DNA from: a virus
Lineage: Duplodnaviria; Heunggongvirae; Uroviricota; Caudoviricetes
Strand: one strand, 5' to 3'
Length of the DNA stretch: 64,000 nucleotides
IMG/VR virus record: IMGVR_UViG_3300028833_000001
Span: 255,171 to 319,170 of that record
The notes under the pieces were generated by a model. It saw nothing but the letters and a program-made list of their open reading frames with translations, searched no databases and was not told where the DNA came from. Made by a program: the position numbers and the translations under genes. Below, piece after piece: positions 30,301 through 62,888 of this stretch; the first letter of the stretch is position 1; every line of letters begins with the position of its first letter.

Positions 30301-33207
30301 AATAATTTTAATGGCGAACTAAATACTTATGGTTCAAGTGTGTCATATAATAAAAGGATACAAATAACTGATGAAAGTGAAACGTTAAGTGCATTCGGAA
30401 TATCCGATTCTAGTGAGTTGCAAGATACAGATGCCACAGAGACAGGTTATACACAAGTTAAAACGATTGAAAAAAACAGTGTAGATTATTATAGGTTTAG
30501 ACTTGGACTTGATTATGATAATCTTAACAAAACCAATGGTAAACATATTAGACAATTTGCGGTAACTAAAGGAAATAAGTATTATTTACCACAGTATGAA
30601 AATAGCTTTTATTTTTATTTTGGTTTAAAAGCTGGTGCGACAGCAATTGACGAATTTAATAAACAATTTTTTTCAGAGTGCGAGCAGTCTAATTTAATTG
30701 AATATGACTATGGTGTTAGAGTGCATGTCGATGACTATAATTTTGTGTCTGGTAGCTCACAAGTCACTTTTGAAATAGTAAACATGACGCCAGGATATAT
30801 ATATTCAATCAACACGTTAGACGATAAGCAATATGTAACAGGCACGACTGAAGATAGTGAATTTGTTTTAGACATACCATATGGCTCGTATTATATAATA
30901 ATTCGTGATAGTGAAGGTCTTAACAGTAAGGCAGATTTTGTTGTTGGTGAAAATGTTAAAACTGGAGTTTTAAATGTGCAGAATTTTACATTGCCAATTA
31001 GTAAAACAAGAGGCCTAGACAGAAATTATGCTAACAAAAATCTTTTTTATGGTGGTTTTGTTGAACTTTCTGAAGCTATATTGGATTCAGATGTTCAGTT
31101 TGTAAATAAATATTTAGTTTTATTCAATAAAGACTCTGACCCAGAAACAACTTATCCGATATTTAATACAATTATAAACGATTCTGGGTATGCCATATAT
31201 TATTTGAAATATAAAGATGTCGAAAGTGATGCCTATATAAGATATAAATGCATTGGCGGCGATTATGTATGGATTTTTCTCGAAACTATAACAATTACGG
31301 ATAATAGTAGACTTGGTCTAAGTATTGGTTCGCCAATTAGTTATAATTTTTCTAGCATAGCATCTGCGAGTTCTATTGTTTGGTGGGATAACGGAAATAC
31401 TAACACTAATTTTAATGATTCGGCTTTATCTGGGTGGTCCATAAGAAATGCGATTATAAAAAGAAATTCGTCTGCTTATACATATTCTAGCGGAGTTTTC
31501 CCAGTTGGCGGTGATAAGATGCTGTTTGGGTCGTTGCAAAACTATAATAACATTTATATTGCACAAAATAAAAAATTATATTCAAGTGATTATATAGAGG
31601 ACTGGGAAAACGGATATACTCTTGATGATTCGGTGTCTTATTGGGCCACATACGGTAAAAACTATACGCCAAGTATAAATCAATATCAAGCAATCACCGT
31701 TGACGGTTTTGACGTAATGGGAAAATGGGTTGCAAAAGTTTCTGGTAAAACTGGCATAACAAAAGAGGTTGTTTTGGAGTTAGAAGATACAAGTTCACTA
31801 AGAGACGGTGGTGGGTGTGTTCTTAAATCTGTTACTTCTCCTGCAATTGTTGGTTGTGTTTATCACGAAGATAACCATACAATCGAATGCTTATGCGACA
31901 TTAATGAGGCCAATAGTATAGAATATGGGATTGTTTATCCAACAATTCATTATCCTGTGATTAAAAAAGATTTTACAGTAAGTACGAATTATTTTTATTT
32001 TTCGATTAAAAATTTATTACTACCTACAAGCACGAATGATAATTCTCTTGTTGTTGAAACCGTTGACGTGCATGAATTTTTAGAGTGTTTAGTTCGTAAT
32101 GGATTAACATATAAGGGCTTTTATTCTGGAAAATCATTTATAAGTGGTGCGTTCAAGTATATGCCGTACAGTGAAATTGTAGCTAAAAATGGTGAAATAA
32201 GAAAGAAAGCAAAACCAAATATGTCACTTTTTTATCTTGGCGAGAATTATGATATGGCTGGCATCGGGCCACAATCAACTTCAACTAGTATATTTGAGTT
32301 TTCAGAGGTAAATGCGTTTCCAGATTACAATAGGCATTACGAGTTCATCGAGGGTTTCCCATTGCATAAAAGTGGAAGCACGTATTTAGCGTATTCTGCC
32401 ACAACTGGTAGTTTATATGAAAATGCTTCGTTATATGAAGATGTCGCAGAAAAAAGGTCATTGCAATTATCACCGAATTTTTATGATGAAATTAACTACG
32501 CAATAGATTCTGCGTCAACACATCTTAGATTTGTAGGCGTTGGAGCAAGCGATTATGATGTTGAATATTATTATTGTGATAGGAGTGATGAAGATTTGCA
32601 AAGATTAATGATAACTGGATATTTACCGCTTGACCGTAAATATGTATATGCCGTTAGAGATGAGTATGATAATTTTAGGGAATTTTATATGTTGTGTAAA
32701 TATACATCAAAGAACCCGACAGCGTTAATCGGGGCGGAGTTTTCGATAAAAGTTTCTAAAGTTGCATTTAAGAAGTGGTATATGGCAAATGTTCCAGTGT
32801 TTACAGTTACTGAGGATGAATTAGGAGAGAGTTCTTATACACCAACATTTGTTGAATGCTTATACGAGAAAGGTAGCGACTACGATGTCACTGATATGCC
32901 AACAATGGCCACTATAATTGAATATCACACAAGTGGTCATGTTAAATGTGTACATAATGTATCACCAAAAGTAGAGAATATTATAGAGCCTGGAAAACAA
33001 ACTGACTTGAATTCTTTTACGTCAACATTATTACCAAAATTAACTAATGATAAAAAAATAACGCTAAATACAACGTTAGAAAATACTGGAATAAATCCAG
33101 ACGATATTTTTATTGTTGGTATAGCAAGATATAATAGTGATATGTTGGCTAGCGGAAATGTATGCAAGATTTATTCTACATTAAGACAGATAGCATATAT
33201 TGAATAA
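27298..33207 (+). CDS. Very large virion/baseplate protein (1969 aa) with N-terminal carboxypeptidase-regulatory-like beta-sandwich
   Basis: GIIVGRV...GIPNAKVSVF...TKTNNSGDY; position in the baseplate operon. Confidence 0.65.
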   Translation: MSEINKTYRIRATVGEESFIPLHLEQEYDVLDVLSLKIRSKDTFKLHNSNVGIIVGRVQANNGFGIPNAKVSVFIQSTEQNGTLLRNLYPFTNAASKTKDGVRYNLLPDEKTGDCHQIVGTFPNKRYVLDNDIILEVFDKYYKYTTKTNNSGDYLLAGIPTGSQTVHVDIDLSDCGILSQRPRDFVYKGYTIEQFESPNMFKSGTEYGNLSQVFSQNKSVYVYPYWGNESLGEEIGLTRLDFDIAYKFEPTCVFIGSVISDNSSQGISKKCIPTENMGNMDELVSGKGTIEMIRKTIGGDVEEFQINGTELINGDGIWCYQIPMNLDYMMTDEYGNMVPTDSPDKGIPTRARVRFRVSMEDMEDNTNNFFRAKILVPHNPQNTDGSKHELYDYEFGSFTKDESFRDLFWNNVYSVKSYIPRIQKKKVLGWKTKKFTGIKGCQNFGSNNPLPYNNIRIHLPLMFTVMCLLLKAFIRITAIFNSIIAGVGNAMANLANVMWSTLILQKPAKKVYALARNLKLNVIEDGICPDLENWYFAPLSKNNIKTINVKHKLSSDDDDEFNILQQTLDSLVQDDGTVTPKDEMSIDIENADTEDESVCVTTSTNYLISCMEMNLALEYKVINFDFYNDWINGVLYFPRWMRDVRTKRSINGTFFAETKIKSCMDNTAIFSKARRYTQLCSLGYEANNYDSHTTFSRVNVKLNNKSQINKANKFHKKSGITQVKIFGKNGGICHQHKTMIGQYVYYLKPCEWTYKTAPQNRKVTLFATDIILLGSLNSCDLFGLPQAFSHLGGTTYIMPPNLALTNLETESALFTAENGRLCSKKNSSSTDTMGLSMIDGEINNPLTSELLAYSGVSDNYDVQFNGDENDTIALTELAGISWNYVGPGQGTNVPKHLYYPGGHFLGLSCANSQTNIKSCVNLERICEAGASMSQRKDEVSAVIDGDVKYVYTVPSGLISGGDIVDPDFRAMFATMNQKRLIADTINKDTGYLNYDFLFVKPNNFNGELNTYGSSVSYNKRIQITDESETLSAFGISDSSELQDTDATETGYTQVKTIEKNSVDYYRFRLGLDYDNLNKTNGKHIRQFAVTKGNKYYLPQYENSFYFYFGLKAGATAIDEFNKQFFSECEQSNLIEYDYGVRVHVDDYNFVSGSSQVTFEIVNMTPGYIYSINTLDDKQYVTGTTEDSEFVLDIPYGSYYIIIRDSEGLNSKADFVVGENVKTGVLNVQNFTLPISKTRGLDRNYANKNLFYGGFVELSEAILDSDVQFVNKYLVLFNKDSDPETTYPIFNTIINDSGYAIYYLKYKDVESDAYIRYKCIGGDYVWIFLETITITDNSRLGLSIGSPISYNFSSIASASSIVWWDNGNTNTNFNDSALSGWSIRNAIIKRNSSAYTYSSGVFPVGGDKMLFGSLQNYNNIYIAQNKKLYSSDYIEDWENGYTLDDSVSYWATYGKNYTPSINQYQAITVDGFDVMGKWVAKVSGKTGITKEVVLELEDTSSLRDGGGCVLKSVTSPAIVGCVYHEDNHTIECLCDINEANSIEYGIVYPTIHYPVIKKDFTVSTNYFYFSIKNLLLPTSTNDNSLVVETVDVHEFLECLVRNGLTYKGFYSGKSFISGAFKYMPYSEIVAKNGEIRKKAKPNMSLFYLGENYDMAGIGPQSTSTSIFEFSEVNAFPDYNRHYEFIEGFPLHKSGSTYLAYSATTGSLYENASLYEDVAEKRSLQLSPNFYDEINYAIDSASTHLRFVGVGASDYDVEYYYCDRSDEDLQRLMITGYLPLDRKYVYAVRDEYDNFREFYMLCKYTSKNPTALIGAEFSIKVSKVAFKKWYMANVPVFTVTEDELGESSYTPTFVECLYEKGSDYDVTDMPTMATIIEYHTSGHVKCVHNVSPKVENIIEPGKQTDLNSFTSTLLPKLTNDKKITLNTTLENTGINPDDIFIVGIARYNSDMLASGNVCKIYSTLRQIAYIE

Positions 33208-33230
33208 ATAAACTAACACAAGGGTTATAC

Positions 33231-35942
33231 ATGGAAAGAAAGATTTTTTTGGAGAAGAACAACAGCGTTAATTCGATTAATCGTGAATCGAGAATGTCTA
33301 TAGGATTGTCTGTTAATGAGAAATTGTTAAAAGGTAATAATGTAGACACAGAATTTTCTTTGTTTGAAGAGTATAACGCTGAAAGGGATTCGTGCGACAA
33401 ATATCGTTTCTTGCTGAAAATAAATCCGATATGCACGAATGTTCTGTTTAACACTCAAACAGAGGTTGTTTATCTTGAGGGCTCTGATAGTGCTACTGTT
33501 ATATCTGACCAATCAACTATTTCGCCAAACACAATTAATGGTGGGCAAAATAACATACAAAATTCAACTGTCATAAACAGAAAACAAGCTATACGAGATA
33601 CTGAATATTCTCATAATAGCAATGGCGATTTTTCTTATCATTGCGGTGTTGATATGTTCAATAACCATCAAATACGTAATATAGGTTTTTCGCATGTTAA
33701 CCAAATTAGTACTTCAATGTCCAATCAGGATTATGCAATGCAAAAGGGTGTTTATAACACCATTAAAGATTTTATGAGAGACGGAAGCGGTATGCCTATT
33801 ACTGGGGATGTCAATCCAAGGTACAACAGTAATAGTTATAACACTAAATTACATTTATACACTACTGATAACATAAGAACGATGAAAAGAGCTTATGTTG
33901 AAGAAATTTCTGAACAAAATGGGTGGATAGGTTTTTTTAATAAAAGCAATATTGACATTAAGAACAATGAAGAGGATACAGCGAGGATTAATTGTGTTAT
34001 AAACAACAAAAAACCGTGCGAATATATTGATTTGTATCCAGATAGAAGTCTATTTTCATTTGTTCCAAAGTATAACAAATATAGGAAAAGGGACGAAAAA
34101 AATTGGGATTATTGTATAACATACCCATTTTTAAAGGATTACGATTTAGTTGATACTATTTGTTGCGGTAGAACTCAAGCCATTAGATGTTCAGTTAAAG
34201 AAACGGTAACGCCAACTGGAAATGCCGTTATAGAATGTTCATCGTTATTTAAACATACCTTAAAAGAAGGAAGTGTAATAAACGTGTATTATTATGAGGT
34301 GGGTATGCACAATACACTGACGTTCAAAAAGTATCCTGGTAAAGTAACTGTATATTATGTTGGTGATGTTAACGGTTTAAACAATGATAATGTATTCAAT
34401 ATTAGATACGATGAAATTAGCGACATACTAGACAACATAATAAATTATGGACTTTATTATAAAAAAGTTGAAAACGGTGAAGAATGTGAATACTACTTTA
34501 GAAAATATAAGAAATTATTTGGTGTTAATAATAGCGGGAATAGAACAAAAGAACTCAAAAGCAATGTCGGGGCAGTGGCTTTTGGGCAGACAATTTACGG
34601 AGATGCAACAGCCCAAGTAACGTTTATTGATGATATTGACGTTTCTGGGTTAGTTGACCATCATGGAAGGCCGTTGTCTGAAGTGTATTTTACTGTCATT
34701 AAAAGAAATGCTGGGCACAATTTATGGTATTATCAAGACAATACATCGTCATCAGCCATCGAATTTTCGCATTGTTTCGGAAAAGTAACCAGCGGAGTTA
34801 AACTATATGGTGATAATAAAATTAATTTTGATTACAATATTAATAAATTGCATAATATTAATTCAAAGGTAAATATCCATCCGATTCCGTATAACCACGT
34901 TTATGACGTTCTTGGAGATGCAGTATTGTCTGGCACGCCAAAAGTTATTGAAAATAATATAACAAATTTAGATTCAATATTTTACGGGAATTTAGTTGAA
35001 TTTAATAAATCTGAGTATGAAGAGACTGAGTTAACTCCAGTTTTTCACAGATTTAATACTGAGCAGCGCGAATATTGTAAAGACAATAAATACGCTGAGA
35101 TATTTCATGATGAAATTAGGTTTGACGATTATGATTTTAAGAATTCTAATAATACTCAGTTTGAAGTAAATGAGCTTGATTATTCTAATATTTCAATTAG
35201 CGGAACAAATATTAAAGTATTCGGAAATTTACGGCCAGAGGGTTATTTTTATAACCCGCACACAAAAATCGCAATAAAAAAAGAAAGCGAAATAGTAAAA
35301 ACAGCAAAAGCCAAATATTTGAATTTTATTTCAATATCTGGAGCGTTTTACACAGTAAAAAACTGTACCATAGTATCTATTGAAGTGCCAACTGGTTATC
35401 AAATTTTGCGTGGAGAGCATATTGCCGTGTATGATAGAGGTGATGGGATAAATATACATGATATTAAATGGGGTGAAGTATGCAAGGTAAACGGTAATTT
35501 ACTTGAAATAGAATTTCAAGGAAGCCCATTTGGGTCGTTTCCAGTACAATATGGCGGAGTATACGATATAACATACATATTGCAAGAAGAAAGTGATGGG
35601 GTTAGGAGATTTTATATGTTCTACTCGAATGATGGTGTTCCTAATTATGCCACATTTGTTAAATCAAATTTAACATTTGTTTGGAGGGGATTAGATTTGA
35701 TGTCTGAATGCAATTATGGAGATGAATTATATAACATACCATTTGCCAATGGCAGATTGTATGTTGAGAAAAACATTAATTTTTTTGTCAAAAGACAAGA
35801 CCCTAACGGAAAATTCGGCTTATTATATGGGCTAAATGCAACTTATAACAACCCAGTGAATTTATTTAGTTTACCAGGGACAGAATTTGATATGTCACAA
35901 GCAGAAGAATTTTACAATAATTTAAATAATGTTTGCTATTAA
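33231..35942 (+). CDS. Putative virion structural protein (903 aa)
   Basis: Operon context; no specific motif recognised. Confidence 0.6.
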   Translation: MERKIFLEKNNSVNSINRESRMSIGLSVNEKLLKGNNVDTEFSLFEEYNAERDSCDKYRFLLKINPICTNVLFNTQTEVVYLEGSDSATVISDQSTISPNTINGGQNNIQNSTVINRKQAIRDTEYSHNSNGDFSYHCGVDMFNNHQIRNIGFSHVNQISTSMSNQDYAMQKGVYNTIKDFMRDGSGMPITGDVNPRYNSNSYNTKLHLYTTDNIRTMKRAYVEEISEQNGWIGFFNKSNIDIKNNEEDTARINCVINNKKPCEYIDLYPDRSLFSFVPKYNKYRKRDEKNWDYCITYPFLKDYDLVDTICCGRTQAIRCSVKETVTPTGNAVIECSSLFKHTLKEGSVINVYYYEVGMHNTLTFKKYPGKVTVYYVGDVNGLNNDNVFNIRYDEISDILDNIINYGLYYKKVENGEECEYYFRKYKKLFGVNNSGNRTKELKSNVGAVAFGQTIYGDATAQVTFIDDIDVSGLVDHHGRPLSEVYFTVIKRNAGHNLWYYQDNTSSSAIEFSHCFGKVTSGVKLYGDNKINFDYNINKLHNINSKVNIHPIPYNHVYDVLGDAVLSGTPKVIENNITNLDSIFYGNLVEFNKSEYEETELTPVFHRFNTEQREYCKDNKYAEIFHDEIRFDDYDFKNSNNTQFEVNELDYSNISISGTNIKVFGNLRPEGYFYNPHTKIAIKKESEIVKTAKAKYLNFISISGAFYTVKNCTIVSIEVPTGYQILRGEHIAVYDRGDGINIHDIKWGEVCKVNGNLLEIEFQGSPFGSFPVQYGGVYDITYILQEESDGVRRFYMFYSNDGVPNYATFVKSNLTFVWRGLDLMSECNYGDELYNIPFANGRLYVEKNINFFVKRQDPNGKFGLLYGLNATYNNPVNLFSLPGTEFDMSQAEEFYNNLNNVCY

Positions 35943-38335
35943 TGGAACACATTAAAATTAATCTTGTAAATCCAGTTTATGGCGTTCGTGAAATGCCAAT
36001 ACATTGTTTTTTTATTGAAAACAATATGTTAAAGATAGTTTTTGTTGACGATGAAAACCATAAAATGAATATTGGACAGCATTTAACGTTTGTGCGGTAT
36101 ATTTACGACGATAACGACATATCTACATCTATTCAAGATAATATAGAAGTAATTTCGTTTGATAAATACTATGATAATGGTGTTGAGTACGATTGCGTCT
36201 ATACAACAATACCGCAAAAACGTCGTTTATCGCTAGATAGGACTACGACAGAAAATGTTGTATATTGGGATAAAATTGATAACAGGTATGTTGTTGTTGA
36301 TAATCCGACATTAGGATTTTATGATTATGTTTTCGATGAAAATAATGTTACTGGAATTGATTTATCGTCATTAACAAACGAAGAAATCGATTCTCTTCCA
36401 GAGCATTTATACACAATTGAGGAAAGTATTTACGGTATTAGAAAATTCAAAACGCTGTTCCCAGCTGGAACAATACCAAGTTCAGATATACTGACTTCTA
36501 TTATTATAGAAGCTATGACTAATGAAGGCATAGAAATTCCAGAAGAATATTTAGGAGATAATATATATGATTATATCGATGAGGGCCTTGGTGGCGATAA
36601 TTATGATGGAATGGATTCTACTTTGGACCATTTATACGATATAGGCGCATTTGACATTGATAGATATGACGAATATTTCGTTTTAACGTTTAATGAAAAA
36701 CATGATATCTATCAACAAGATATCGATTTACTGGCCAGCAGCCAAATGACTGGAGAATATTATATTAATGTGTACGATTCAGAAATGAGTAAAATTGGTT
36801 ATTTTCTTGCATTGCATATTCCTTACGTCGATAATTTGCTTCCAGTAGATAAAAAAACGACTTTAACTGAATGGGTTGAACAAACATGCGGTATGTTTGA
36901 TATGGATGGAAATCCATACGATATTACGTATCATAAATATGTTTTTGCCCCAAACAGATTTAGCAAAAAAAGTATTATAGTTAGAAAAGCTGAAACTGGA
37001 TATGTCAGTGAATCACCTATAGATACACCACAAACACTTAATATAAAAAAAATAGAATATCTTTTAGAGCATGGTTTCTGGTTTGAGCCAGCATATACAC
37101 CGTTTTTTTATACAACAACAATTAATAACTCAGAATGGTGCACAATGTGGGACGATATATGGTGGGATTATTATGAAAACAACAACGGAGCTATCCCACA
37201 AAAAAACATTTGGTTTAACAGTGGTAATACACATGTGGCTCTTACAATAGATAATAGTTATTGGAATGTTCCGACATTATTTTCATCTAATGATGAATTT
37301 ACGTCGCTTAATACCGACGAAGACGGTGTTTATAATTTCATTGAAAATACGATATCAAACTCATTACCAAAAGCTATTGATTTTGAAAGAGTTAAATATT
37401 TTCCAGTCATTTTTAATGAAACGCCATCTGGAAACTACACTAAAGCAAGTGAAATAATATATAGGCTACATTTCAGACAGAGAGTCAAAAAAAATGGGCA
37501 AGAAGTGTCTAATATTCCAGAAGAATATAGGCCATATGAAGATGGTTGGTATGTTAATCAAGAATCAGGAAGTACTGTGTGGTGGAATGAAATGCAATAC
37601 TCTTTAACAAAACTAACCAATTCAGAAATGACGGCTTTTGTTTTATCGCAAAACAAAAAATCCGATATGTTGGGGTATCTTAATTTTAATGATGATGATG
37701 TGTTTTTTAGCAAAACTAAACTAACAAAATCTTTTGTTAGATTTTCATTCTACACATCAAAAGACCCTATAGAGCAAAAACTTCTTTATTATTCTACTTC
37801 GTTTTTTGATATTCATGAATTAAGGCAAAAATATATTAAACTTTTGATAAAAAACGGTAGAAAACCAGAAAAAAATGAGCGACCGTTTGTGCTAACTGAT
37901 GATAATGAAAATAGACTTGACAGTACAATAAAATTAACTGATGAACATAATTCAGATAAGTCCAGCGATGGTTTCAATATATACCTATTTTTAGAAGATG
38001 CTCCAATAGAAAATAGTGAAAAAACTATTTATATGAAAGTTGAATTTAACCATGCTGGGAACGGAAAAACTATACCAATGATATTATGGCCTAAAAACAA
38101 TAACGGAAATTATGTCAGTCTTACAACGTCTAATTTTCTTAGTAGTCTTTACATTCCAATTATAATTAAATACATTAATGGAGAATATGTGTATGAAATA
38201 GTTGGTTCACAAGTAAATGGCGATATAATTGAGGTTAGTTTATTTGAGCCAAAACTTGATATAGAAGGTGACGATTTCGTACCAACAACTGGTAATACAG
38301 ATTCAACGAGTGATACACAAACACAAAACACATAA
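35942..38335 (+). CDS. Putative virion structural protein
   Basis: TAATG coupling with the upstream gene places the start at 35942; operon context. Confidence 0.6.
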   Translation: MEHIKINLVNPVYGVREMPIHCFFIENNMLKIVFVDDENHKMNIGQHLTFVRYIYDDNDISTSIQDNIEVISFDKYYDNGVEYDCVYTTIPQKRRLSLDRTTTENVVYWDKIDNRYVVVDNPTLGFYDYVFDENNVTGIDLSSLTNEEIDSLPEHLYTIEESIYGIRKFKTLFPAGTIPSSDILTSIIIEAMTNEGIEIPEEYLGDNIYDYIDEGLGGDNYDGMDSTLDHLYDIGAFDIDRYDEYFVLTFNEKHDIYQQDIDLLASSQMTGEYYINVYDSEMSKIGYFLALHIPYVDNLLPVDKKTTLTEWVEQTCGMFDMDGNPYDITYHKYVFAPNRFSKKSIIVRKAETGYVSESPIDTPQTLNIKKIEYLLEHGFWFEPAYTPFFYTTTINNSEWCTMWDDIWWDYYENNNGAIPQKNIWFNSGNTHVALTIDNSYWNVPTLFSSNDEFTSLNTDEDGVYNFIENTISNSLPKAIDFERVKYFPVIFNETPSGNYTKASEIIYRLHFRQRVKKNGQEVSNIPEEYRPYEDGWYVNQESGSTVWWNEMQYSLTKLTNSEMTAFVLSQNKKSDMLGYLNFNDDDVFFSKTKLTKSFVRFSFYTSKDPIEQKLLYYSTSFFDIHELRQKYIKLLIKNGRKPEKNERPFVLTDDNENRLDSTIKLTDEHNSDKSSDGFNIYLFLEDAPIENSEKTIYMKVEFNHAGNGKTIPMILWPKNNNGNYVSLTTSNFLSSLYIPIIIKYINGEYVYEIVGSQVNGDIIEVSLFEPKLDIEGDDFVPTTGNTDSTSDTQTQNT

Positions 38336-38362: not shown

Positions 38363-40849
38363 ATGGATATTATACGTAAACAAGTAAGTGTTGATAGAGG
38401 CATTTCCCACACACCTGGGCTAATTCCGTATTATCCATATAATGATATAAATTCAAGCATTAGATTCGTTACTGGAATCGATGTTGATGGCAATTATAAT
38501 GAATATGTATGTGATTTTGGGAAGGTGGCCAGTTGTGTGTGTGGCGTAACAGAAACACTATCGTATTATAAAGAAGAAATCTGCACATCTGGCATTTCAG
38601 AGTCTGATAATTCTATAGAGGCTAGATTTAGGTATTGTGATGCCATACATCATTACCTGAAAATTTCGGAATCTCTTAGAACTGGTGTTTTCGGAAAGGT
38701 TGTTAAACATACAGAAACTACTGTTGTTAATGTAAATTGTTCAACTTCTGACCATAATTGTTCTGAAGGCCCAATAGAAGAAACAAATTCTGAAGACTAT
38801 TATGATATAGTGACTTGTTTTCATGAAACACCATCAAAATTTGAATTTAAACCGTTAGATTGTGACTTGTTTTCGCGTATTGACCAAAATATATATAGAT
38901 TAACTTATCCAGAAATAGACCCAGACGAACCACAAACAAGTGACGAGCCAGTTCAAATAGATATGAATATGGTTTTAAAAAGACAGGAAGCCGTCGAGTC
39001 GCTTGTAGAAGGGAATTTCGTTGTTTTAATTTCAAATTATGACGAAATTATTGGTTACGAAAACGAATGGAAGTCTTGGTGGGAAAAGTGGTTTGGAGAA
39101 GGATGGGAAACAATAGCATATGGTGAGTCATATGTTCAACCCAATGAGCCGTCTTTTTTCCCTTTTTGTCAGAATTTTGAAAAATATTTTTTAGGAAAAA
39201 ATTATGTACCAAATGAATTTGCTGAAAGCGCTATAACTGGGATTTACGTTCCAGAATATGTATATAATGCCGATTTATATAATTATATAACTTGGTTTGA
39301 AGAACGTAATATCGAAAGGGATGATGAACTGCAAAAAGATTGGGATAAACATGGCGGGGATGTTTTTTTTGAATATTTAAAGACACTGTCAACACGGTGG
39401 ATAACAGGAAACACAGAGCATGATTTTTCGATACAAGAGCCACAAACAAGGTTTAAATTTTTAACGCCATATGTTAGTGTTCCTATAGTATTGACGCAGT
39501 CAAATGACGTTGCCTGGAATTATGAAAGTTATTTAGATTCAAGTAGACCGTTTTTGCCAGAAGGGGAGTTTAGCGGATATTCGATTTTTAACAGTGGGCA
39601 TTTTGTTACGTTGTCTGATTCTGGCTATGTAGAATCAAAATTATCATTTGTAGCCGACAAAAAAGCAACATTTGTTGACGGTATTTTTGGCGTGTGGGAT
39701 GAAATGAGTATCAGTAATAGCAGTTCGAAAATTTTTGCTGGAACATATCATACAGGCAACAGTGCAACCATAGGTGTATCTGTTATTCGGAAAATTTATC
39801 ATAGTGGCGGTACTGTTGATATTATTCAATTACAAGAGCAAAATGTTTTAGAAGAAGCCCCAACCGTACAACCATCAACTTCAATGGTGCTATTGGTTAA
39901 TAAATTTTTGGATGCTACAGATGGTGCCAACACGCAAAATACAACACAAATAACAAGTGGCCCAGAAATTAATGGTGATATTGTTCTAATTGAAGAAATT
40001 ACAGCAACAACGAACTACAAATATGGCTGGTGGGAATTTCAAGAAACTGATGCTAATGTGTCTTGTGGAGATGGTGAAATAATACATCCTAACGACGAAA
40101 AGTATCAAACAGTCCAAACGATATCAAACGTTAAGACGATAGTTAAAAACCCACAAGAAAATGATTTGTATTACTTTTATGTTCAATATAACAACGGTGT
40201 TGTATGTACTGGAGGTACACAAGTAAAGGTGGACTCTAAAAATACAACAAAAAATTTCATGTTGCCATATAAAAGTGATACATATTTTGACATGGAATAT
40301 ATAACAACGGATAATAACGGTGATTTGTATGTTGGTAACTATATACCTCCATCTGGTGTGACAATTGAAAGCGGTTTTTGTACTATAAATTATGTCATTG
40401 GTGGTAGGGCATATTATAATTCACAAACATCAGCATACACACCAGTGACTTATAGCGGAATACATTATTCCGAGAGTTATCCATATATAACTGGGTATAA
40501 GTTAATTACGCTTGACGGTTATAAAAATCTTGATTTTTATTACGAAACACTTCAATATGATGCAAACATAGAAACTGCAATATACGAAGAGTATAAAAAA
40601 GAAAGAAAAGTAATTAGAGCAAAGCTTGTTGGGATGGAAGTCGGTACAACGTGGACCAGCGGAAATTCAATAATAGCGCCTATATTCACTGACGAATTTA
40701 CATCAACACAACAATATGACAATAAAAGCATAATGGATATTTCAATAGATAGAGGAGTTGCGGCTGCATTTGAAACTAATTATAAGTTAGGTGAATGTAA
40801 CACACTTGAAGATATTGAAAATTATTCAAACAACTTTTTTAAAATTTAA
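38363..40849 (+). CDS. Putative virion structural protein (828 aa), rich in S/T-G motifs
   Basis: Operon context; acidic, with many SG/TG dipeptides. Confidence 0.6.
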   Translation: MDIIRKQVSVDRGISHTPGLIPYYPYNDINSSIRFVTGIDVDGNYNEYVCDFGKVASCVCGVTETLSYYKEEICTSGISESDNSIEARFRYCDAIHHYLKISESLRTGVFGKVVKHTETTVVNVNCSTSDHNCSEGPIEETNSEDYYDIVTCFHETPSKFEFKPLDCDLFSRIDQNIYRLTYPEIDPDEPQTSDEPVQIDMNMVLKRQEAVESLVEGNFVVLISNYDEIIGYENEWKSWWEKWFGEGWETIAYGESYVQPNEPSFFPFCQNFEKYFLGKNYVPNEFAESAITGIYVPEYVYNADLYNYITWFEERNIERDDELQKDWDKHGGDVFFEYLKTLSTRWITGNTEHDFSIQEPQTRFKFLTPYVSVPIVLTQSNDVAWNYESYLDSSRPFLPEGEFSGYSIFNSGHFVTLSDSGYVESKLSFVADKKATFVDGIFGVWDEMSISNSSSKIFAGTYHTGNSATIGVSVIRKIYHSGGTVDIIQLQEQNVLEEAPTVQPSTSMVLLVNKFLDATDGANTQNTTQITSGPEINGDIVLIEEITATTNYKYGWWEFQETDANVSCGDGEIIHPNDEKYQTVQTISNVKTIVKNPQENDLYYFYVQYNNGVVCTGGTQVKVDSKNTTKNFMLPYKSDTYFDMEYITTDNNGDLYVGNYIPPSGVTIESGFCTINYVIGGRAYYNSQTSAYTPVTYSGIHYSESYPYITGYKLITLDGYKNLDFYYETLQYDANIETAIYEEYKKERKVIRAKLVGMEVGTTWTSGNSIIAPIFTDEFTSTQQYDNKSIMDISIDRGVAAAFETNYKLGECNTLEDIENYSNNFFKI

Positions 40850-40877: not shown

Positions 40878-41741
40878 ATGAGTAGCGGAATATTTGGAAC
40901 AGTAAAACCTGCAAATATAACACCACATTTAGATGTGGAAATTCTTTATTATTATAGGCCGACGAGAAGCAGAACTGACGCAAGTTTTGACGGATATAAG
41001 GCCCTTGACCCATCTGAATGCCTGAAAAAATCAGTAATCACAGAGTCGCATGACGCAGTTGAGGGGCTGTTCGAATTGAGATTGCCGCTTGACAAATTCA
41101 ATATGAAAGGCTTTTATACCGTTTACATAAGGCCAAAAGAATGCCAGGCAAAAATTATAGATGTAAGTGTATTGGCTAGTTATCCAGACATAAAAGGTGT
41201 TGTTTTTAATATATCAAATGGCCCACTTGCTGGTATAAATGATTTAACTGGCTATAGAATGGAATTTGAAGATGGGACAACAAGAATTATTAAATCATGT
41301 AATAGATGCGAGCCAGTGTCAGTGAATAACGGAGACGGTTACCCTAACGTTACTCGTTACATTTTGGTTGATACATCTAGCGATTATGTATTTTGTACTG
41401 TAAGCCCGTCAACAGCCCCGACGTTTAAGCCAAACGCATTGCCTTATATAGGTACACCAGGTGAGACCGTCAAAATTATGAACACTAAATTTACGCCGCA
41501 ATTAATTGAGTTCGAAATGGTTGACCATGATGCTGATACTATTTCTTATATGCTTGAAGGTGAACAGGTTAGAGATAGAGATAATGGTATTTTGACAACA
41601 TATAACACAGATAATGAAATTTATCGCCAATTTGATTTCTATTCTATTAAGAGTACTCTTGGTGAACCTCTTTATGATGTTAAAAAACGTAGAAATGATA
41701 TTGACGGAACACAATCATATGAAAATATAATGAACAAGTAA
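40878..41741 (+). CDS. Putative virion structural protein (287 aa)
   Basis: Operon context; TAATG-coupled to the next gene. Confidence 0.6.
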   Translation: MSSGIFGTVKPANITPHLDVEILYYYRPTRSRTDASFDGYKALDPSECLKKSVITESHDAVEGLFELRLPLDKFNMKGFYTVYIRPKECQAKIIDVSVLASYPDIKGVVFNISNGPLAGINDLTGYRMEFEDGTTRIIKSCNRCEPVSVNNGDGYPNVTRYILVDTSSDYVFCTVSPSTAPTFKPNALPYIGTPGETVKIMNTKFTPQLIEFEMVDHDADTISYMLEGEQVRDRDNGILTTYNTDNEIYRQFDFYSIKSTLGEPLYDVKKRRNDIDGTQSYENIMNK

Positions 41742-44701
41742 TGGCAAAAAGTAATCAATATATTAAAACAAAAGCCAATTATACGTTAGTCAAAAAACAC
41801 ATGACAACGTATAGTGGAGATATTTTTGAACAGGACCATCTTACAATATCTGCTCCGTATGATGGGGTGTATGATGACTCCGTTACTATGTTTTCCGATT
41901 CAAATTTTAAATTTAGAATCAGGGGTAAAGAAAATGCAAAGAAAAAACATTTTAACGGAAATTGGTTAGAGTCTGATAATGGGTCAACATATTGGACAGA
42001 GGCAGATTGCAATCAAGTCAATACATCAGAGACTTCAATTAAACTTAAACCGAATTACACATCATTAAAGGATTTTGCTTATTTTGGGTCGGCAAGCCAA
42101 TTAGTTAAGGCTACAATTACAGATATAATTATGCATTATCCAGGTGGAATATATTATTTAGGTGATTCATACCCAATTGATGTTAATGGTGACACATATT
42201 ATTTGGTTGCTAACGATTTTGATATTGATATAATGTCGATGGGGTGTGTTTTCGACGAAGAGGAAAACCCGATGAGAGTTTTAAGTGCTTCGTTGGATAA
42301 ATACAATTTCAAAACCACAGACAAAAAATTAACCGAACTGACATTTGAATATATAAATGGATTATGTAATGGCGAAATTTTAGGAAAATCAACAATTGTG
42401 AGTGATGGCGGTGCAGTTGTGTTATATGTTTATTTGGACAAAAACGGAGAAAAAAAGATATTAACCGATGACCCTGGAGCTTTTGGTAATCCTATAATTG
42501 TACCAACAAAAGAAGTTTTTGATGAAATGTATGATTCGTTAGATGATTTTTCAAAGGTTTTACTTGATTATACAACGAATCCATTGTTTGTGGCAAAATT
42601 TGATACCCCACATTTTAATCGCGACGGTAGATATTGGGTACTAGAAAAATATATATTTCCAAGTATTACCAGTTCAGACGGTAAATTTTTCAGTCCAAGA
42701 ACATCTGGCCCAGCATTTTCTGGGTATTTTGCCAAACTAATGGCATTGGCTGAATCTTTGGATGAGTTTGATTCTAATAATTTGATTAGAATGTTGACTC
42801 ACGAATCAATTTTGAATTTGGATTGGAGTGTATTAAACACGAAATATGCCGATGACGAAGATAATTCTGTTGACAACTCCAGAATTAAAGCTATGCTTGA
42901 AATTTATGCTAGACAGTTTGATGACATAAAAAGATATGCTGACAACGTTAAAAACACTACTAAAATTTCGTATAATGAATCTAGTAATGTTCCTGACTAT
43001 TTTCTTTCTGATAAAGCGAATAATGATGGGTGGGATTTGCCAAATATGGCCCCAATAGAGGATACAAGTATATACACTAATGTTTTATACCCGCAATCAA
43101 TGTCTGTCGGGTACAATAGTTCTGATTATAATATAGAGTTTGAAAGAAGACTAATACTTAATAGTCGGTTCATAAAATCATTAAGGGGTACGAGATATGG
43201 TGTTGAAACGCTTCTTGGCTTGCTTGGATTGAAAAATGGCGCAAAGGAAACAGACCAATCCATAAACACTGGTTTGACAGCTGGATATTATGAATTGCAT
43301 GAACATATTGCGGTTGCAACTACATTTCCGTCATTAATAGACATTAATTTAGCCATTGAAAATAGCGATGATTATGACGAAACTTATTCTCAATATTTTG
43401 ATTACCCAATAGCTATCGTAAACAGGGGTGAAACGCCTAGTGCAAATTTTGTTGTTCCGTGGTACGACAGAAAAAATAGCTATACAAATTATATGTACTT
43501 TCAGATGAATGGAGGTTGGGGGCACGTTCCGTCTAAAAAAATTAATCTTGAAATTAGTACGGCTTCGTCAATAACGGAAACTGCAATAACATCAATCTAC
43601 GATGAAACTATACAATATTTGAAGTATGCCACCACAATAGATGAGTTGACTGGATACACGCAATCAAATATTAGGAGAAACATGGTTTGTTATGTCGAAA
43701 ATATAGAGGGTATTTACGGTGGATACAATGCGGATGAGGAAGATAAGGCTATAATAGAAGAAACTAGTGGCGAATGTTTTTCTCACTATTTTATATTGAA
43801 AAACACAGCGTTGTCTCCGTTTATAGGATTTGTAACTCCAGATGAAAGTGGGGGGAAATATAATTGTTATGGGTGGAGAAACGTATTCAGACATGAATTT
43901 GATGGAACATCGGCCATAACTTGCGATGGAACTTGCGTTTTGTATTTAGAATCAATACAATCGGATAACAGTGGAAATAACATGCACGCTGGATTTGGTG
44001 AATATGACGATGGGTTAGAATATCTTGAATATTTCAATCAAATTTTTAAAAACAAATTAGAAAATAACCAATTTTCACTAGTTTCGTCAAACGATGGGGC
44101 AGACCTACCAATTTCAATTGACACAATTAAAAATATTGGGTTTAATGTTGATTTTAATTTAGTTGTTGACGATACAAAATGCCATTGTTTCATTAATACA
44201 GATTCAACTGGAATAGAAATAATTGACCCGTCTGTGCTTGGAGATGATGCGAATGATAGCGAACAGACTGATAGTGAAACTTTGGTTATAGTTGGCGATG
44301 AAGTTGACGATGATATGGATTTAACAAATTGGGATGATATATATGATTCTTTTGTTAATCCTATTGATGGTGGTGATTCAGTTGATGAAATGGCTGCTCT
44401 ATCGGTTATTAATGTTAAAAATACAAATATTAATTTTATAACGAACAATAATATTCATTATAGGGAATACATACAATATATCATAATACCTTTATTAGAG
44501 CAAATGATTCCGTCTACAACGATTTTTTCATACACATTTGACGGAGAAGAAAGCCCAGCAATTGCTGAACCGTTTAGTAATGCTCAACCAATTTCAATAA
44601 CCACATTGTATGCCGATGCTGCTGTTCCGTCAGAATATGAACCATTGACCGAGTTTGACATCAATACAAATACAATACCGACAATAATAGAAGTAGAATA
44701 A
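41741..44701 (+). CDS. Baseplate wedge subunit, P2 gpI / T4 gp7-like
   Basis: VPDYFL and RRLILNSRFIKSLRGTRYGVETLLGLLG resemble the K-GT...E..L motif; C-terminal MIPSTT. Confidence 0.6.
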   Translation: MAKSNQYIKTKANYTLVKKHMTTYSGDIFEQDHLTISAPYDGVYDDSVTMFSDSNFKFRIRGKENAKKKHFNGNWLESDNGSTYWTEADCNQVNTSETSIKLKPNYTSLKDFAYFGSASQLVKATITDIIMHYPGGIYYLGDSYPIDVNGDTYYLVANDFDIDIMSMGCVFDEEENPMRVLSASLDKYNFKTTDKKLTELTFEYINGLCNGEILGKSTIVSDGGAVVLYVYLDKNGEKKILTDDPGAFGNPIIVPTKEVFDEMYDSLDDFSKVLLDYTTNPLFVAKFDTPHFNRDGRYWVLEKYIFPSITSSDGKFFSPRTSGPAFSGYFAKLMALAESLDEFDSNNLIRMLTHESILNLDWSVLNTKYADDEDNSVDNSRIKAMLEIYARQFDDIKRYADNVKNTTKISYNESSNVPDYFLSDKANNDGWDLPNMAPIEDTSIYTNVLYPQSMSVGYNSSDYNIEFERRLILNSRFIKSLRGTRYGVETLLGLLGLKNGAKETDQSINTGLTAGYYELHEHIAVATTFPSLIDINLAIENSDDYDETYSQYFDYPIAIVNRGETPSANFVVPWYDRKNSYTNYMYFQMNGGWGHVPSKKINLEISTASSITETAITSIYDETIQYLKYATTIDELTGYTQSNIRRNMVCYVENIEGIYGGYNADEEDKAIIEETSGECFSHYFILKNTALSPFIGFVTPDESGGKYNCYGWRNVFRHEFDGTSAITCDGTCVLYLESIQSDNSGNNMHAGFGEYDDGLEYLEYFNQIFKNKLENNQFSLVSSNDGADLPISIDTIKNIGFNVDFNLVVDDTKCHCFINTDSTGIEIIDPSVLGDDANDSEQTDSETLVIVGDEVDDDMDLTNWDDIYDSFVNPIDGGDSVDEMAALSVINVKNTNINFITNNNIHYREYIQYIIIPLLEQMIPSTTIFSYTFDGEESPAIAEPFSNAQPISITTLYADAAVPSEYEPLTEFDINTNTIPTIIEVE

Positions 44702-57466: not shown

Positions 57467-59038
57467 ATGGCAAATAGAAAATCTCAACAATTAATCAATT
57501 ATCATAGTCCTGGCCCACTGTCATCACATCAGCCATCGTCAAGTGATGTCCAATATGGCGAAATACTTGTTATACACAACCAAACAGAGCCATTACTAGG
57601 AATAAAAGTAAATTCAGCTGGAACAAATAGCGATTTTGCATGGTTTATTAGTTCAGCAGCAGTTGCGTCTGCTATTGCAACGGTTGATGGTGGCGCTACT
57701 GATGCGTTAAATAAAGTATTAGCATTGTCTGGTTCTGTAACTGGATTTAGCGCTTCAGTTATAAGTACTTACGCTACTAGTTCTAATACTGTTGCAGCTA
57801 TTAACTCTGCAATAGAAGGCTTGGATTCTGGTCCGTTTAATGGCACATCAGCAAAGACAATTACAAAGGTACAGGAAGTTAATGGTAAACTTACAACCGT
57901 AGAATTTAGCCCAATTTTTATTGAACAAAGCCAAGTTAATGGTTTACCAACAATAGCTAGTGATGTAGCGACCAACACTAGCAATATAACTAAACTAACT
58001 ACTGGGCTTAGCGCAACAGTTGTTTCTAGTTATGCCACAAAAAGCCAAGTAAGTGCTCATGTAAATACTGAAATTCAAAAATTAGACGTAAGTAATATTA
58101 GTGGTTTTGGTGCTGGTAAAACATTAAAAACGTTAACAGAAACTGACGGTAAAATTGCGGCAACATTCCAAGATATCGAAATAGCTCAATCTAAAGTAAC
58201 AGGTTTGGAATCTAGATTAAGTGATATTGACGAGACATTGGTGACGCATACAACAAACATCGGAGCAGTTAGCGGGTCGTTAGTTGCATTGTCTTCAAGT
58301 GTTATTACAACATTAAGCACTGTGTACCATGTTATGGGCACAAAGGGAAGTAAATCAGATTTACCAACAACTGGACAGAAAACTGGTGACGTTTGGAACG
58401 TTACAAATGCCGAAGGTACTCCTGGAACTACTGGATATACGCCAGCAGGTACGAACTATGTGTGGGATGGAACTAAATGGGATGCACTTGGAGGTACGGT
58501 TGATTTAACTAATTATGCTACAAGCGCTAATACATATAACGCCATAAAAGCAGTTGCTGATGACTTAAGTGGCCACATTACTGGTAATTTTAAAACTCTT
58601 TCTGGTAATGTATTTACGTTAAGCGGACAAGTTGTGACTAAATATGCTACTAGTGCAAATACTGTCAATGCTATAAACGCAAAAGTTAACGCCTTAGATT
58701 TTGGCCCGTTAAGTGCAGAAACTGTTAGCGGTTTTGTGATTTCAGCAATTAAGCAAGTTGATGGTAAGATAGACGCCGTAAAATCAAAATTAAGAATTGA
58801 TACAAGTCAAATTGATGGCTATAGTGCAGTAACAAGCGATATTGCTAAACTAAGAAGTGATTTGAATGCGGTTTCTGCTGTAACAAAAACAGCTTTACAA
58901 CAATACAAGCTTAATACTATTAGTGGCACTGGTGGAAATATAACTCAACAAAGTGGTGCTAAGGCTACATATGATAATTCAACAAATATAGCTACTTTAG
59001 ATTTAAGTGGTTTGATTATTGATTGTGGTGACTTCTAA
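57467..59038 (+). CDS. Tail/head fibre protein (S/T-rich)
   Basis: VQYGEI N-terminal motif, three LD...DGKI-type modules, GDVWNV...GTNYVWDGTKWDALGG domain, C-terminal IDCGDF. Confidence 0.7.
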   Translation: MANRKSQQLINYHSPGPLSSHQPSSSDVQYGEILVIHNQTEPLLGIKVNSAGTNSDFAWFISSAAVASAIATVDGGATDALNKVLALSGSVTGFSASVISTYATSSNTVAAINSAIEGLDSGPFNGTSAKTITKVQEVNGKLTTVEFSPIFIEQSQVNGLPTIASDVATNTSNITKLTTGLSATVVSSYATKSQVSAHVNTEIQKLDVSNISGFGAGKTLKTLTETDGKIAATFQDIEIAQSKVTGLESRLSDIDETLVTHTTNIGAVSGSLVALSSSVITTLSTVYHVMGTKGSKSDLPTTGQKTGDVWNVTNAEGTPGTTGYTPAGTNYVWDGTKWDALGGTVDLTNYATSANTYNAIKAVADDLSGHITGNFKTLSGNVFTLSGQVVTKYATSANTVNAINAKVNALDFGPLSAETVSGFVISAIKQVDGKIDAVKSKLRIDTSQIDGYSAVTSDIAKLRSDLNAVSAVTKTALQQYKLNTISGTGGNITQQSGAKATYDNSTNIATLDLSGLIIDCGDF

Positions 59039-59110: not shown

Positions 59111-59128
59111 ATTGAAATTAATAATGTT

Positions 59129-59629: not shown

Positions 59630-59643
59630 AATTAATAAAGTAA

Positions 59644-59712: not shown

Positions 59713-59717
59713 GGCCG

Positions 59718-60761: not shown

Positions 60762-60778
60762 GGTTTCGTTTGTAAAGA

Positions 60779-60786
60779 CTATTTAT
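60779..60786 (+). promoter_or_regulatory. Putative late promoter CTATTTAT
   Basis: Starts 43 nt before the fibre ATG, the same offset as at 57424. Confidence 0.6.
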
Positions 60787-60821
60787 TATTGGAAAATAAT
60801 AAACATAATATATAACATATA

Positions 60822-62888
60822 ATGGCAGCAAACGAAAATAGGCAAAAATTAATTCATTTACACAAATCTACTAGCGGGTCGCCAGCGACAAGTGATTTAA
60901 ACTTTGGCGAAATAGCGGTCAATCATTCGATAGACAAGCCTGCTTTGTATATTAAAAATAATGATGGTATTATTGAATTTTTACCAGCGACAGCTATAAC
61001 CCAAATATCAAAAATTTATGCCGATGGGTTGATTGATGCTTTGGATGTATCAGCTCAAACTATAGCGTATGTAACATCTGGCGATAACGTTATAATTTAC
61101 CCAACAATCACAGAAGATGACGGAAAAATATTAATTTCTGGGGACCCAATAACATTGGCAAAGGTGGCTAAAACTGGAAATGCGGCTGACATCTCTATAG
61201 ATGATACAAACGATAATTTTAGTGCTACAACAGTAGAGGGCGCATTAGCTGAATTGGTTGCAAAAGTAAGTTTTGGTACAACTATCGATGGAGAAGGTGG
61301 AGTTTTTACTACTGGTAATGGTATTGACGATGTAACATCTGAAAACAAAGTATTATCTGTTAAAGTAAAAGATAATGATTACATATCAGTTGACAGTACT
61401 GGCGTTCAGTTAGACTCATCAAAAATCGATTCTTCTTATGAGACAGGAACAACTGGAAATCTAGCGACAGTTGGAACTGTTAAAAGCGCTATTGAAGATT
61501 TAGACACTGATGGTTTTAGAATGCTTGACGTGGTTGCTAGTGCTCAAAACGAAACAACTTTAATTGTTAGAGGAATAAAAGAAGTTGACGGAAAAATTGA
61601 ACTTGATTCACCGACTAACGATTTTGCTATATTGGTTGACGGTCAATATAACAATACAACAAATAAACTTGCAACAGAGCATACAGTTTTTGAAGCTATT
61701 TCTGGTTTGGATGTTACTGCTATTACTGGCTCGGCTAATCAAACTATTACTTCAGTAAGTGAAGAAGACGGTAAGATTTCAGCAACTTATAGCGATATTT
61801 CAATAACAAAGAGCCAAATTTCTGACTTGGGAGATTTAGACAGTCTTTATGCGCCGAAATCATTAAGTGGTACTGTTGAAACGCTTAACGGAAAAATTGA
61901 TACTTTAATAGGAAGCGATTCTGGAAAATCTGTTAGAACAATAGCAAATGAAGAACTTGTTGCGCAATTAATTCCAGCAACAGCACAAGAGTCATTAGAT
62001 ACGTTACAAGAAATTGCGGATTGGATTCAGCAACATCCAGACGATGCTTCTGCAATGAATACTGCGATAACATCACTAAGTGCTGTATCAGCAAGCACAA
62101 GATTATCGGCCCTTGAAACTTCTACTCACACACACGAAAACAAGTCAACACTTGACACTATTAGTGCGGAAAAAGTAACAGCTTGGGATGGTGCCGTAAC
62201 AAACTCACATACTCACAGCAATCAATCTTTATTAGATACCTATACTCAAACTGAAGCTAATTTGGCTGACGCAGTTGATAAAAAACACGAACATTCTAAC
62301 AAATCCGTTCTTGATGGTATTACAGCAGAAAAAGTTGCTGGATGGGATGCAGCTTCAGCAGATACTCACACACATGAAAATAAAGAGGTTATTGATGCTA
62401 TTACAGCAGAAAAGGTTGCTGGTTGGGATGCCGCTTCGGCAGATTCTCATACTCATAGCAATAAAGCTCTGTTAGACACATATACACAAACAGAGGCTAA
62501 TTTGGCAGCAGCTGTAGCAAGCGCTCATAATCATACAAATGCAACCGTTCTTGATGGTATTACGGCAGAAAAGGTTGCTGGTTGGGATGCCGCTTCGGCA
62601 GATTCTCATACACACACAAACAAATCCATTATTGATGATATTGACCAAACAGACATTGATAAGTGGAATGCTTCTGTTACTGGCGCAACTGGAGACACTT
62701 ATGTTGCCGCATCGGTAGCTGATAATGTTGTTACCGTTTCATCAACAACAGCAGCCACAAATGTGTTTACAAATGCAGTTTTAGGCGTTAATAACACGTC
62801 ATCAGCAACATCAGCTAATGTTACAGTTGATAGCACATCAAAATTGTTAGATTTTTCAAATCTGTCAATTGATTGTGGAGAATATTAA
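60822..62888 (+). CDS. Tail/head fibre protein with HxH repeats
   Basis: LNFGEIAVN N-terminal motif, LD...DGKI modules, LDTLQEIADWI, 7 HxH repeats, C-terminal IDCGEY. Confidence 0.75.
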   Translation: MAANENRQKLIHLHKSTSGSPATSDLNFGEIAVNHSIDKPALYIKNNDGIIEFLPATAITQISKIYADGLIDALDVSAQTIAYVTSGDNVIIYPTITEDDGKILISGDPITLAKVAKTGNAADISIDDTNDNFSATTVEGALAELVAKVSFGTTIDGEGGVFTTGNGIDDVTSENKVLSVKVKDNDYISVDSTGVQLDSSKIDSSYETGTTGNLATVGTVKSAIEDLDTDGFRMLDVVASAQNETTLIVRGIKEVDGKIELDSPTNDFAILVDGQYNNTTNKLATEHTVFEAISGLDVTAITGSANQTITSVSEEDGKISATYSDISITKSQISDLGDLDSLYAPKSLSGTVETLNGKIDTLIGSDSGKSVRTIANEELVAQLIPATAQESLDTLQEIADWIQQHPDDASAMNTAITSLSAVSASTRLSALETSTHTHENKSTLDTISAEKVTAWDGAVTNSHTHSNQSLLDTYTQTEANLADAVDKKHEHSNKSVLDGITAEKVAGWDAASADTHTHENKEVIDAITAEKVAGWDAASADSHTHSNKALLDTYTQTEANLAAAVASAHNHTNATVLDGITAEKVAGWDAASADSHTHTNKSIIDDIDQTDIDKWNASVTGATGDTYVAASVADNVVTVSSTTAATNVFTNAVLGVNNTSSATSANVTVDSTSKLLDFSNLSIDCGEY
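62127..62670 (+). repeat. Seven 26-27-aa HxHxN repeats
   Basis: Includes an exact 47-bp direct repeat at 62406-62452 and 62565-62611. Confidence 0.9.

Follow-up and report, generated by a model that had tools for sequence, protein, structure and literature searches.

Why does one four-residue pattern recur in otherwise unrelated tail and fibre proteins that a phage encodes beside a cluster of glycosyltransferase (GT) genes? The stretch of DNA that raises this question, hereafter the window, spans 64,000 nucleotides (positions 255,171 to 319,170) of the viral record IMGVR_UViG_3300028833_000001, and the genome it comes from, that of an uncultured jumbo myovirus, is one contig of 361,445 bp with a GC content of about 33%. 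An earlier note on the window listed instances of the motif [ST][AG]x[ST] in late proteins and proposed a convergently acquired O-glycosylation sequon served by the adjacent GT island. We confirmed the motif, which proved stronger than that note had claimed, and found its reading as a glycosylation sequon to be partly supported. Window proteins are named by the start coordinate of their genes, so that 38363 stands for gene 38363..40849.

We counted the motif against shuffles of whole proteins and local shuffles in blocks of 10, 20, and 40 residues, using the mirror motif [ST]x[AG][ST] as a control. The late set (window proteins 24726–62888; 12,288 amino acids, aa) contained 89 motifs against 39–41 expected, with z between 7.7 and 8.3 for the global and all local shuffles. 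The mirror motif was not enriched in these proteins (43 vs 40), and neither were five permuted control motifs (z −2.4 to +2.0). In the early and replication proteins, we counted 18 motifs where 12 were expected (z about 2), and the refined core of the motif, S[AG]xT, was flat there (3 vs 2.8). TGxS was over-represented in the early window proteins (4–24619; 7 vs 1.5), an excess that probably derives from the Walker A loops of several ATPases. The shuffle test proposed in the earlier note thus upheld its impression, formed by eye, that the motif is commoner in late proteins and rarer in replication enzymes. All of the instances that it listed (SAIT, TAIT, SAVT, SADT, SATT, SANT, and the Gly variants) were present in the genes it named.

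The signal also emerged without any prior choice of motif. In an unbiased scan of all 8,000 a-b-x-c triples in the late proteins, SAxT ranked first (25 vs 5.0, P = 1.5 × 10−10) and TGxT second (19 vs 5.4, P = 4 × 10−6), and these top ranks survived Bonferroni correction over the 8,000 triples. The codons beneath the motif are diverse, with Ser drawn from both TCN and AGY and every Ala and Gly codon present, which places the signal at the level of the protein instead of a DNA word and rules out a DNA-level cause. Paralogy and internal repeats were rejected as the source of the counts, since 57467 and 60822 are the sole detectable paralogues among the motif-bearing proteins and a triple repeat in 60822 adds three instances; the claim that the motif occurs in unrelated proteins therefore holds. 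Known sequons showed no comparable excess in the late proteins. The Bacteroidota sequon D[ST][ALVIMT], from which the motif had been held to be distinct, was found 52 times against 52.1 expected, and the N-glycosylation sequon N-x-S/T 146 times against 151.8.

We next characterized which residues the motif accepts in the window late proteins. Only A or G was accepted at position 2 (z about 6 each), S was preferred at position 1 (z 7.9) followed by T (z 3.7), and T was preferred at position 4 (z 9.6), with S hardly raised (z 1.4). In ratios from the window and its related loci, S and T reached 3.6× and 1.75× at position 1 against 1.3× for D and N, and T reached 3.7× at position 4 against 1.0× for D, E, and V. 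The structural analogues [DN][AG]x[ST] and [ST][AG]x[DE] were not enriched (both z = 0.0). The preference is one for hydroxyl residues, expressed in the protein sequence. The flanks are biased as well: positions −2, −1, x, and +5 are poor in K and R in the Ala and Gly classes alike, and Pro is raised at −3 and −2.

The proteins concerned are large orphans that run from the baseplate wedge genes (gp25-like and gp6/J-like, 24726..27063, + strand; Pfam and PHROGs), the anchor of the late tail module, to 62888. They have no family match; synteny and a fibre-like sequence are the grounds for taking them as putative virion tail proteins. Strong enrichment marks 27298, 38363, 45896, and 60822, and moderate enrichment 41741, 46908, and 57467; the late proteins 33231, 44715, and 49180 show none. 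On the + strand, as are all of the carriers, lie a 1969-aa tail protein (27298..33207; 15 motifs vs 5.2 expected) and three conserved tail proteins of 800 aa (35933..38335; 3 vs 1.1), 828 aa (38363..40849; 11 vs 2.2), and 986 aa (41741..44701; 6 vs 2.7). The motifs of 38363 fall at residues 76, 289, 348, 404, 464, 481, 547, 616, 664, 690, and 766. The fibre-like carriers comprise a 324-aa protein with a heptad region (45896..46870; 8 vs 1.0), a 679-aa protein whose 6 motifs are all of the Ala type (46908..48947; 2.1 expected), a 523-aa coiled-coil fibre (57467..59038; 10 vs 5.9), and a 688-aa fibre with 16 motifs against 6.2 expected, three of them within one internal repeat (60822..62888). 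Searches of PDB sequences with 60822 and 57467 returned nothing useful besides a weak similarity of 57467 to the coiled coil of reovirus sigma-1. A related-locus search found no relatives of 45896, four related genomes held no homologue of 46908, and by these searches the distal fibres are not conserved between phages. As a separate observation, residues of about 500–600 in 60822 (window 62280–62640) contain the unit AEKVAGWDAASAD[ST]HTH three times in tandem, and its H-x-H is reminiscent of the HxH repeats that bind metal at the tips of phage fibres.

Enrichment in this phage is confined to tail proteins, and the head and replication proteins lack it. The Gp23-family major capsid protein (genome 195234–197162) has no motif, and nine other large proteins from the region of the head module (genome 184550–205175) together show 5 where about 8 are expected, which is chance level or a little under it. 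The rest of the phage genome held 225 motifs, with 183 mirror motifs and 179 expected. The motif is also not a generic property of fibres, which is ruled out by null results in T4, three distant myoviruses, and a Lak megaphage. In 24 structural proteins of T4, including gp34–37, gp12, and fibritin, it was not enriched (43 vs 48 expected), and the same was true of the proteins downstream of the baseplate in Flavobacterium phage immuto (50 vs 53) and in LR756508 (11 vs 10). The corresponding proteins of Microcystis phage Mel-JY01 had 34 against 22 expected but also 31 mirror motifs. Across the whole 541-kb genome of Lak-A1, read with TAG as Q, we counted 275 motifs, 262 mirror motifs, and 240 expected, with no outlier protein.

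The relatives of this phage replicate the signal. In 26 loci around homologues of 38363, late-region ratios ranged from 1.45 to 3.55, with the mirror motif near 1. Among 164 late proteins from 20 of the 26 loci, SGxT (268 vs 53) and SAxT (213 vs 39) were the top two triples, and the position profile in these 20 loci matched that of the window, with D, N, E, and V unenriched. In the relative G001, fibre proteins without a window homologue ranked with the most enriched of all (39 vs 12 and 25 vs 7). Motif enrichment is found both in conserved, beta-rich tail proteins and in non-homologous coiled-coil fibres.

Within a single protein family, the number of motifs is kept while their places move. 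The 38363 family, taken as 98 homologues clustered at 50% identity, contained 674 motifs against 176 expected and 171 mirror motifs, and the median homologue held 3.8× the expected number. The 685 instances in this family are spread over 259 alignment columns, with few hot columns (e.g. residues 464 and 547). Close homologues (51–78% identity) keep most sites and exchange A for G and S for T at orthologous positions, and the A–G swaps tie the Ala and Gly variants together. At 25–45% identity, motif S/T residues were retained in 33–34% of cases against 31% for background S/T, and motif A/G residues in 32% against 45% for background A/G. Motif positions in the homologues of 27298 were almost all lineage-specific, and those of 41741 behaved likewise. 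Lineage-specific placement together with a steady excess indicates that motif density is maintained while positions drift, and this turnover in three families lends support to the earlier proposal of convergent acquisition.

For the structural setting of the motif, we used an AlphaFold2 (AF2) model of 38363 built from a 55-sequence alignment, which had a predicted local distance difference test score (pLDDT) of 80 and was read at the level of secondary structure. Nine of its 11 motifs lie in confidently modelled hairpin turns, strand–loop boundaries, or loops, and the other two lie in low-confidence loops. A Foldseek search of this model against the PDB gave no credible match. The AF2 single-sequence model of 45896 was unusable (pLDDT 35). 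In a reading of its heptads from the sequence, x would occupy the core position d, and S, A/G, and T would occupy the outward-facing positions b, c, and e. Gly-type motifs prevail in beta-rich proteins and Ala-type motifs in fibres.

Elsewhere in this phage genome, four proteins carry long collagen-like (G-x-T)n runs, e.g. TGATGPTGKTG (genome 358138–361445, 1080–4103, 329122–332193, and 182392–184206, all outside the window), and one of them holds 133 motif matches against 19.5 expected. No such long repeats were found among the window proteins. A DNA pattern for five G-x-T units matched 68 times in this genome and not once in four related jumbo phages, so that collagen-like repeats, present in one of the five genomes tested, were dropped as a unifying substrate. 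The repeat-less relatives G001, G007, and G008 show motif enrichment, as does the repeat-less G011 weakly.

The enzymes that could act on such a motif are encoded immediately upstream. The GT island (17341–24619) opens with a DUF5672 protein, a putative GT-like enzyme (17341..18267, + strand; Pfam PF18922, E 7 × 10−43), and includes an S-adenosylmethionine-dependent methyltransferase (19898..20515, +; Pfam Methyltransf_24, E 2 × 10−8), a GT11-like protein with a weak match to Glyco_transf_11 (20553..21377, +; 23.4 bits, below the Pfam cut-off of 23.9), and a 1081-aa multi-domain GT with two GT92/Glyco_tranf_2_4 domains and a DUF4422 domain (21374..24619, +; Pfam). By these family matches, the virus encodes GTs of its own: the 1081-aa protein, the putative DUF5672 enzyme, and the weakly matching GT11-like protein. 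One more GT2 match lies elsewhere in the genome, outside the island. Where this phage has its island, the relative L009 (4106–7546) has an anaerobic ribonucleotide reductase (NrdD) into which an intein bearing a LAGLIDADG domain is inserted. In the INPHARED collection of phage records, the 1081-aa GT is closest to proteins of the Prevotella Lak megaphages (41–43% identity, with in-frame TAG codons), including a homologue in Prevotella phage Lak-A1 (MK250016.1, about 418,200–419,040), a kinship which hints that the clade may infect Prevotella or other Bacteroidota. Judging by the IMG sample numbers, the clade probably comes from rumen or gut.

The earlier note had proposed looking for co-occurrence of motif enrichment and GT islands across related phages, and on this point the outcome was mixed. 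In support, a homologue of the 1081-aa GT was found in 13 of 15 related records, and among 63 loci centred on the J gene, those with an upstream island mostly had downstream motif ratios of 1.7–2.7. Loci without an island ranged from 0.55 to 3.05. The genomes G017 and G018, which lack an island at J and are nonetheless enriched, have GT clusters elsewhere, with four GT2-type matches within 14 kb in G018. The unenriched subclade (G020, G021, G022, and G029) has one lone GT2 match, and G030 has none. We compared G018 and G020, which lie at equal distance from the window phage (baseplate J 41–44% identical). The whole G018 genome contained 428 motifs, with 282 mirror motifs and 252 expected; its late block had 89 against 40, and individual fibres reached 28 against 4.8. 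The GT-poor G020 genome contained 123, with 113 mirror motifs and 119 expected, its late block had 24 against 20, and the excess is gone from its orthologous core proteins too.

Taken together, these results lead us to our best reading, to which we give a probability of about 0.5: S/T-[A/G]-x-T/S, with the core S-[A/G]-x-T, may be an O-glycosylation acceptor motif for phage-encoded GTs on the tail and fibre proteins distal to the baseplate. A modification directed at Ser or Thr would fit the specificity, the turnover, the null results, the occurrence in two structural classes, and the loss in G020; O-glycosylation is favoured because the genomes supply the enzymes. In this phage, these would be the soluble GTs of the island, which would work in the cytoplasm late in infection, on loops and hairpin turns at the surface and on coiled-coil positions that face outward. 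One enzyme would initiate on the hydroxyl of Thr (or Ser), the remaining GT domains would lengthen the glycan, and the methyltransferase would cap it. Selection would then keep the number of sites and not their place, as would suit a coat of glycans over the virion surfaces exposed to host and environment. More tentatively, at just short of even odds, we extend this to a clade of jumbo phages of roughly 280–390 kb, which would use their own soluble GT clusters to cover tail proteins and fibres distal to the baseplate with O-glycans, via a previously undescribed sequon, S/T-[A/G]-x-T, whose sites drift at a kept density; lineages without a GT cluster would have lost the motif.

Several observations weigh against glycosylation, and some of them favour a structural origin instead. 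The association of GTs with the motif is confounded by phylogeny: the independent lineages are few, and the unenriched genomes all belong to a single subclade. The negative genome, G020, has a completeness of just 76%. G019 is discordant, with several GT matches and only 1.3× in the 10 kb downstream of its J gene, and G011 and G013 keep about 1.7× in core proteins without an island at the canonical site. Lak-A1 failed as a positive test, having a single GT92 homologue and enrichment nowhere. No protein of the island resembles a known protein-initiating O-GT. What is known or presumed of the GT92, DUF4422, GT11, and DUF5672 families is that they lengthen existing glycans. In the window, S pairs preferentially with A and T with G, which hints at two motif classes, and in the heptad-spaced L-S-A-S-T units of a G001 fibre the motif Thr would fall at the core position a. 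In the main rival reading, the motif would be one or two lineage-specific structural elements spread by reuse of fibre modules within the clade, with [ST]-G-x-T as a turn and strand start in beta-rich, beta-solenoid, or collagen-like proteins and S-A-x-T, in fibres made of segmented trimeric coiled coils, as a helix N-cap or an element like a beta-layer. The turn and strand-boundary placement in the 38363 model and the division of Gly and Ala types between beta-rich proteins and fibres suit this explanation, as do the island-less relatives at about 1.7×. So does a 2060-aa protein of G011 (genome 186456–192638), a genome without a baseplate-proximal island, which consists mostly of hexapeptide-like [ST]-G-x-T-x-[IV] repeats (109 motifs vs 39) and is probably a beta-solenoid fibre; in it and in the collagen-like proteins of the window phage, [ST]GxT clearly serves as a unit of structural repeats. 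Phage fibres often contain beta-layers, and the solved one of AP22 gp53 reads G-S-A-L-S-A-A-Q (PMC4786415). A purely structural cause is nevertheless unlikely in our judgement. The fibre and tail proteins of T4, immuto, LR756508, and Lak lack the enrichment. The residues that commonly form caps and turns are unenriched, both D and N at position 1 and D and E at position 4, whereas a beta-layer or helix N-cap would be expected to hold its position, to exchange capping residues (S/T/D/N at the cap, D/E/T at N3), and to keep a fixed downstream register. Motif residues are conserved no better than background, and Gly and Ala worse, which is the opposite of structural turns. The same motif with shared flank biases occurs in two unrelated structural classes, its heptad phase would differ between 45896 (x at d) and the G001 repeat (Thr at a), and core orthologues lose it in the GT-poor G020.

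Two further explanations carry less weight. The hydroxyl specificity and positional turnover would suit other processes at Ser and Thr, such as phosphorylation by a virion-associated kinase or docking of an assembly factor, in which case the GT clusters would have another task, e.g. on host surface glycans or on DNA. We regard this as improbable, as it leaves the co-distribution with multi-GT clusters unexplained and no kinase was seen in the window. The candidate considered, a CotH-like kinase in 49180, was rejected, as Pfam gives neither a CotH nor a kinase domain there even at E up to 1. Finally, the motif was chosen after looking at the sequence, the fibres are S/T-rich, and the homologues used for replication are not independent, all of which invite the suspicion of a chance or compositional artefact of S/T/A/G-rich regions. 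That suspicion is scarcely credible and was effectively rejected: the excess holds against local shuffles down to 10 residues and against the mirror and permuted controls, it occupies the top two of 8,000 triples after Bonferroni correction, it replicates in sequences outside the set that gave rise to the hypothesis, and it is null in five control phage sets and in G020.

The remainder of the window provides context for this module. Nearly all of its genes are on the + strand, and the early region (genes 4–17211) encodes a thymidine kinase, a RecA-like protein, PhoH, a 5′-3′ exonuclease, a DnaB-like helicase, and ribonucleotide reductase. The sequence CTATTTAT occurs eight times in the window, always on the + strand (5331, 9663, 10581, 24703, 38025, 45843, 57424, and 60779). 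The total count is at chance level, while seven of the eight copies lie just upstream of gene starts, including those of gp25, 45896, 57467, and 60822; strand bias and placement suggest a promoter element. A late-promoter link between the GT island and the fibres through this sequence was dropped, as no copy precedes the island and several precede early-region genes. At the two ends of the contig, an identical 44-base stretch (genome 150–193 and 361261–361304) lies inside collagen-like coding sequence, and the contig ends may overlap, by terminal redundancy or because a circular assembly was cut within a repeat gene.

The best-studied cases of phage glycosylation are the capsids of mycobacteriophages. 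Glycosylation of phage structural proteins has been described as rarely identified (PMC5852040). If the glycosylation reading is true, virion glycosylation in phages, known in kind, would gain a new sequon and new targets, and glycosylated phages could be predicted from metagenomes by a motif readable in the sequence of tail and receptor-binding proteins. It would also imply a new specificity among GT92, DUF4422, and DUF5672 enzymes, be relevant to the ways in which phages of the gut and rumen shield or adjust the apparatus that recognizes their hosts, and provide a phage counterpart to the shifting glycan shields of animal viruses. Even if the motif is structural, a fold-independent, hydroxyl-specific pattern of four residues, in 2- to 5-fold excess across hundreds of diverged proteins and with free turnover, is unusual and calls for explanation.

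Comparison with known systems places the motif among several partial precedents. The beta-layer consensus of trimeric coiled-coil fibres, [aliphatic]-A-T-K-[polar]-[D/E] (PMC4786415), and helix caps share with it a small residue and Thr or Ser before helical segments, as in the G-S-A-L-S of AP22 gp53, but here D/E equivalents are unenriched, positions are unconserved, and beta-rich proteins are equally enriched. SASSAS, described as an O-glycosylation signature of Lentilactobacillus S-layer proteins (PMC10221546), offers a Ser-Ala-x-Ser acceptor context that fits [ST][AG]x[ST]; it is a single site per Gram-positive secreted protein, whereas here the candidate sites are many and dispersed and Thr is favoured at position 4. 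The Bacteroidota sequon is D-(S/T)-(A/I/L/V/M/T), and its system is periplasmic and host-encoded. That general O-glycosylation system (PMC8698959) resembles our proposal in its sequon of three to four residues and in the phylum of the likely host, and differs in its location, its encoding by the host, and a sequon that is unenriched here. In C. difficile, the GT-A enzyme SgtA puts O-linked N-acetylglucosamine on Thr of the GPT collagen-like repeats of BclA3 (PMC7157674). As is proposed for the window, the acceptor Thr lies two residues past a small residue (G-x-T), the GT-A enzyme is encoded beside its substrate, and Ser is also accepted, and this phage has (G-x-T)n collagen-like proteins too, outside the window. 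Unlike in BclA3, most motif sites here are isolated and not in collagen repeats, and no SgtA-like enzyme bearing tetratricopeptide repeats was seen.

Viruses that encode their own GTs are the nearest parallels. Chlorovirus PBCV-1 has multi-domain GTs and a methyltransferase, and its glycans are N-linked to Asn in a non-canonical acceptor context. One source describes the PBCV-1 capsid as glycosylated by these virus-encoded enzymes (PMC5852040). The window phage shares the multi-domain GTs, the methyltransferase, and a candidate non-canonical acceptor context, and its enzymes would likewise act in the cytoplasm; PBCV-1 differs in being a eukaryotic virus with N-linked glycans and a capsid target. 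In mycobacteriophages such as Che8 and Rita, phage-encoded GTs are reported to glycosylate the capsid (Freeman et al. 2023, as summarised in PMC11256854). There the GT families and the host phylum are different and the major capsid protein is modified, whereas here no motif occurs in the capsid protein and tail and fibre proteins distal to the baseplate are the candidates. The two systems nonetheless have in common GTs encoded by the phage, glycans on structural proteins (here proposed, at candidate sites), and a proposed glycan shield.

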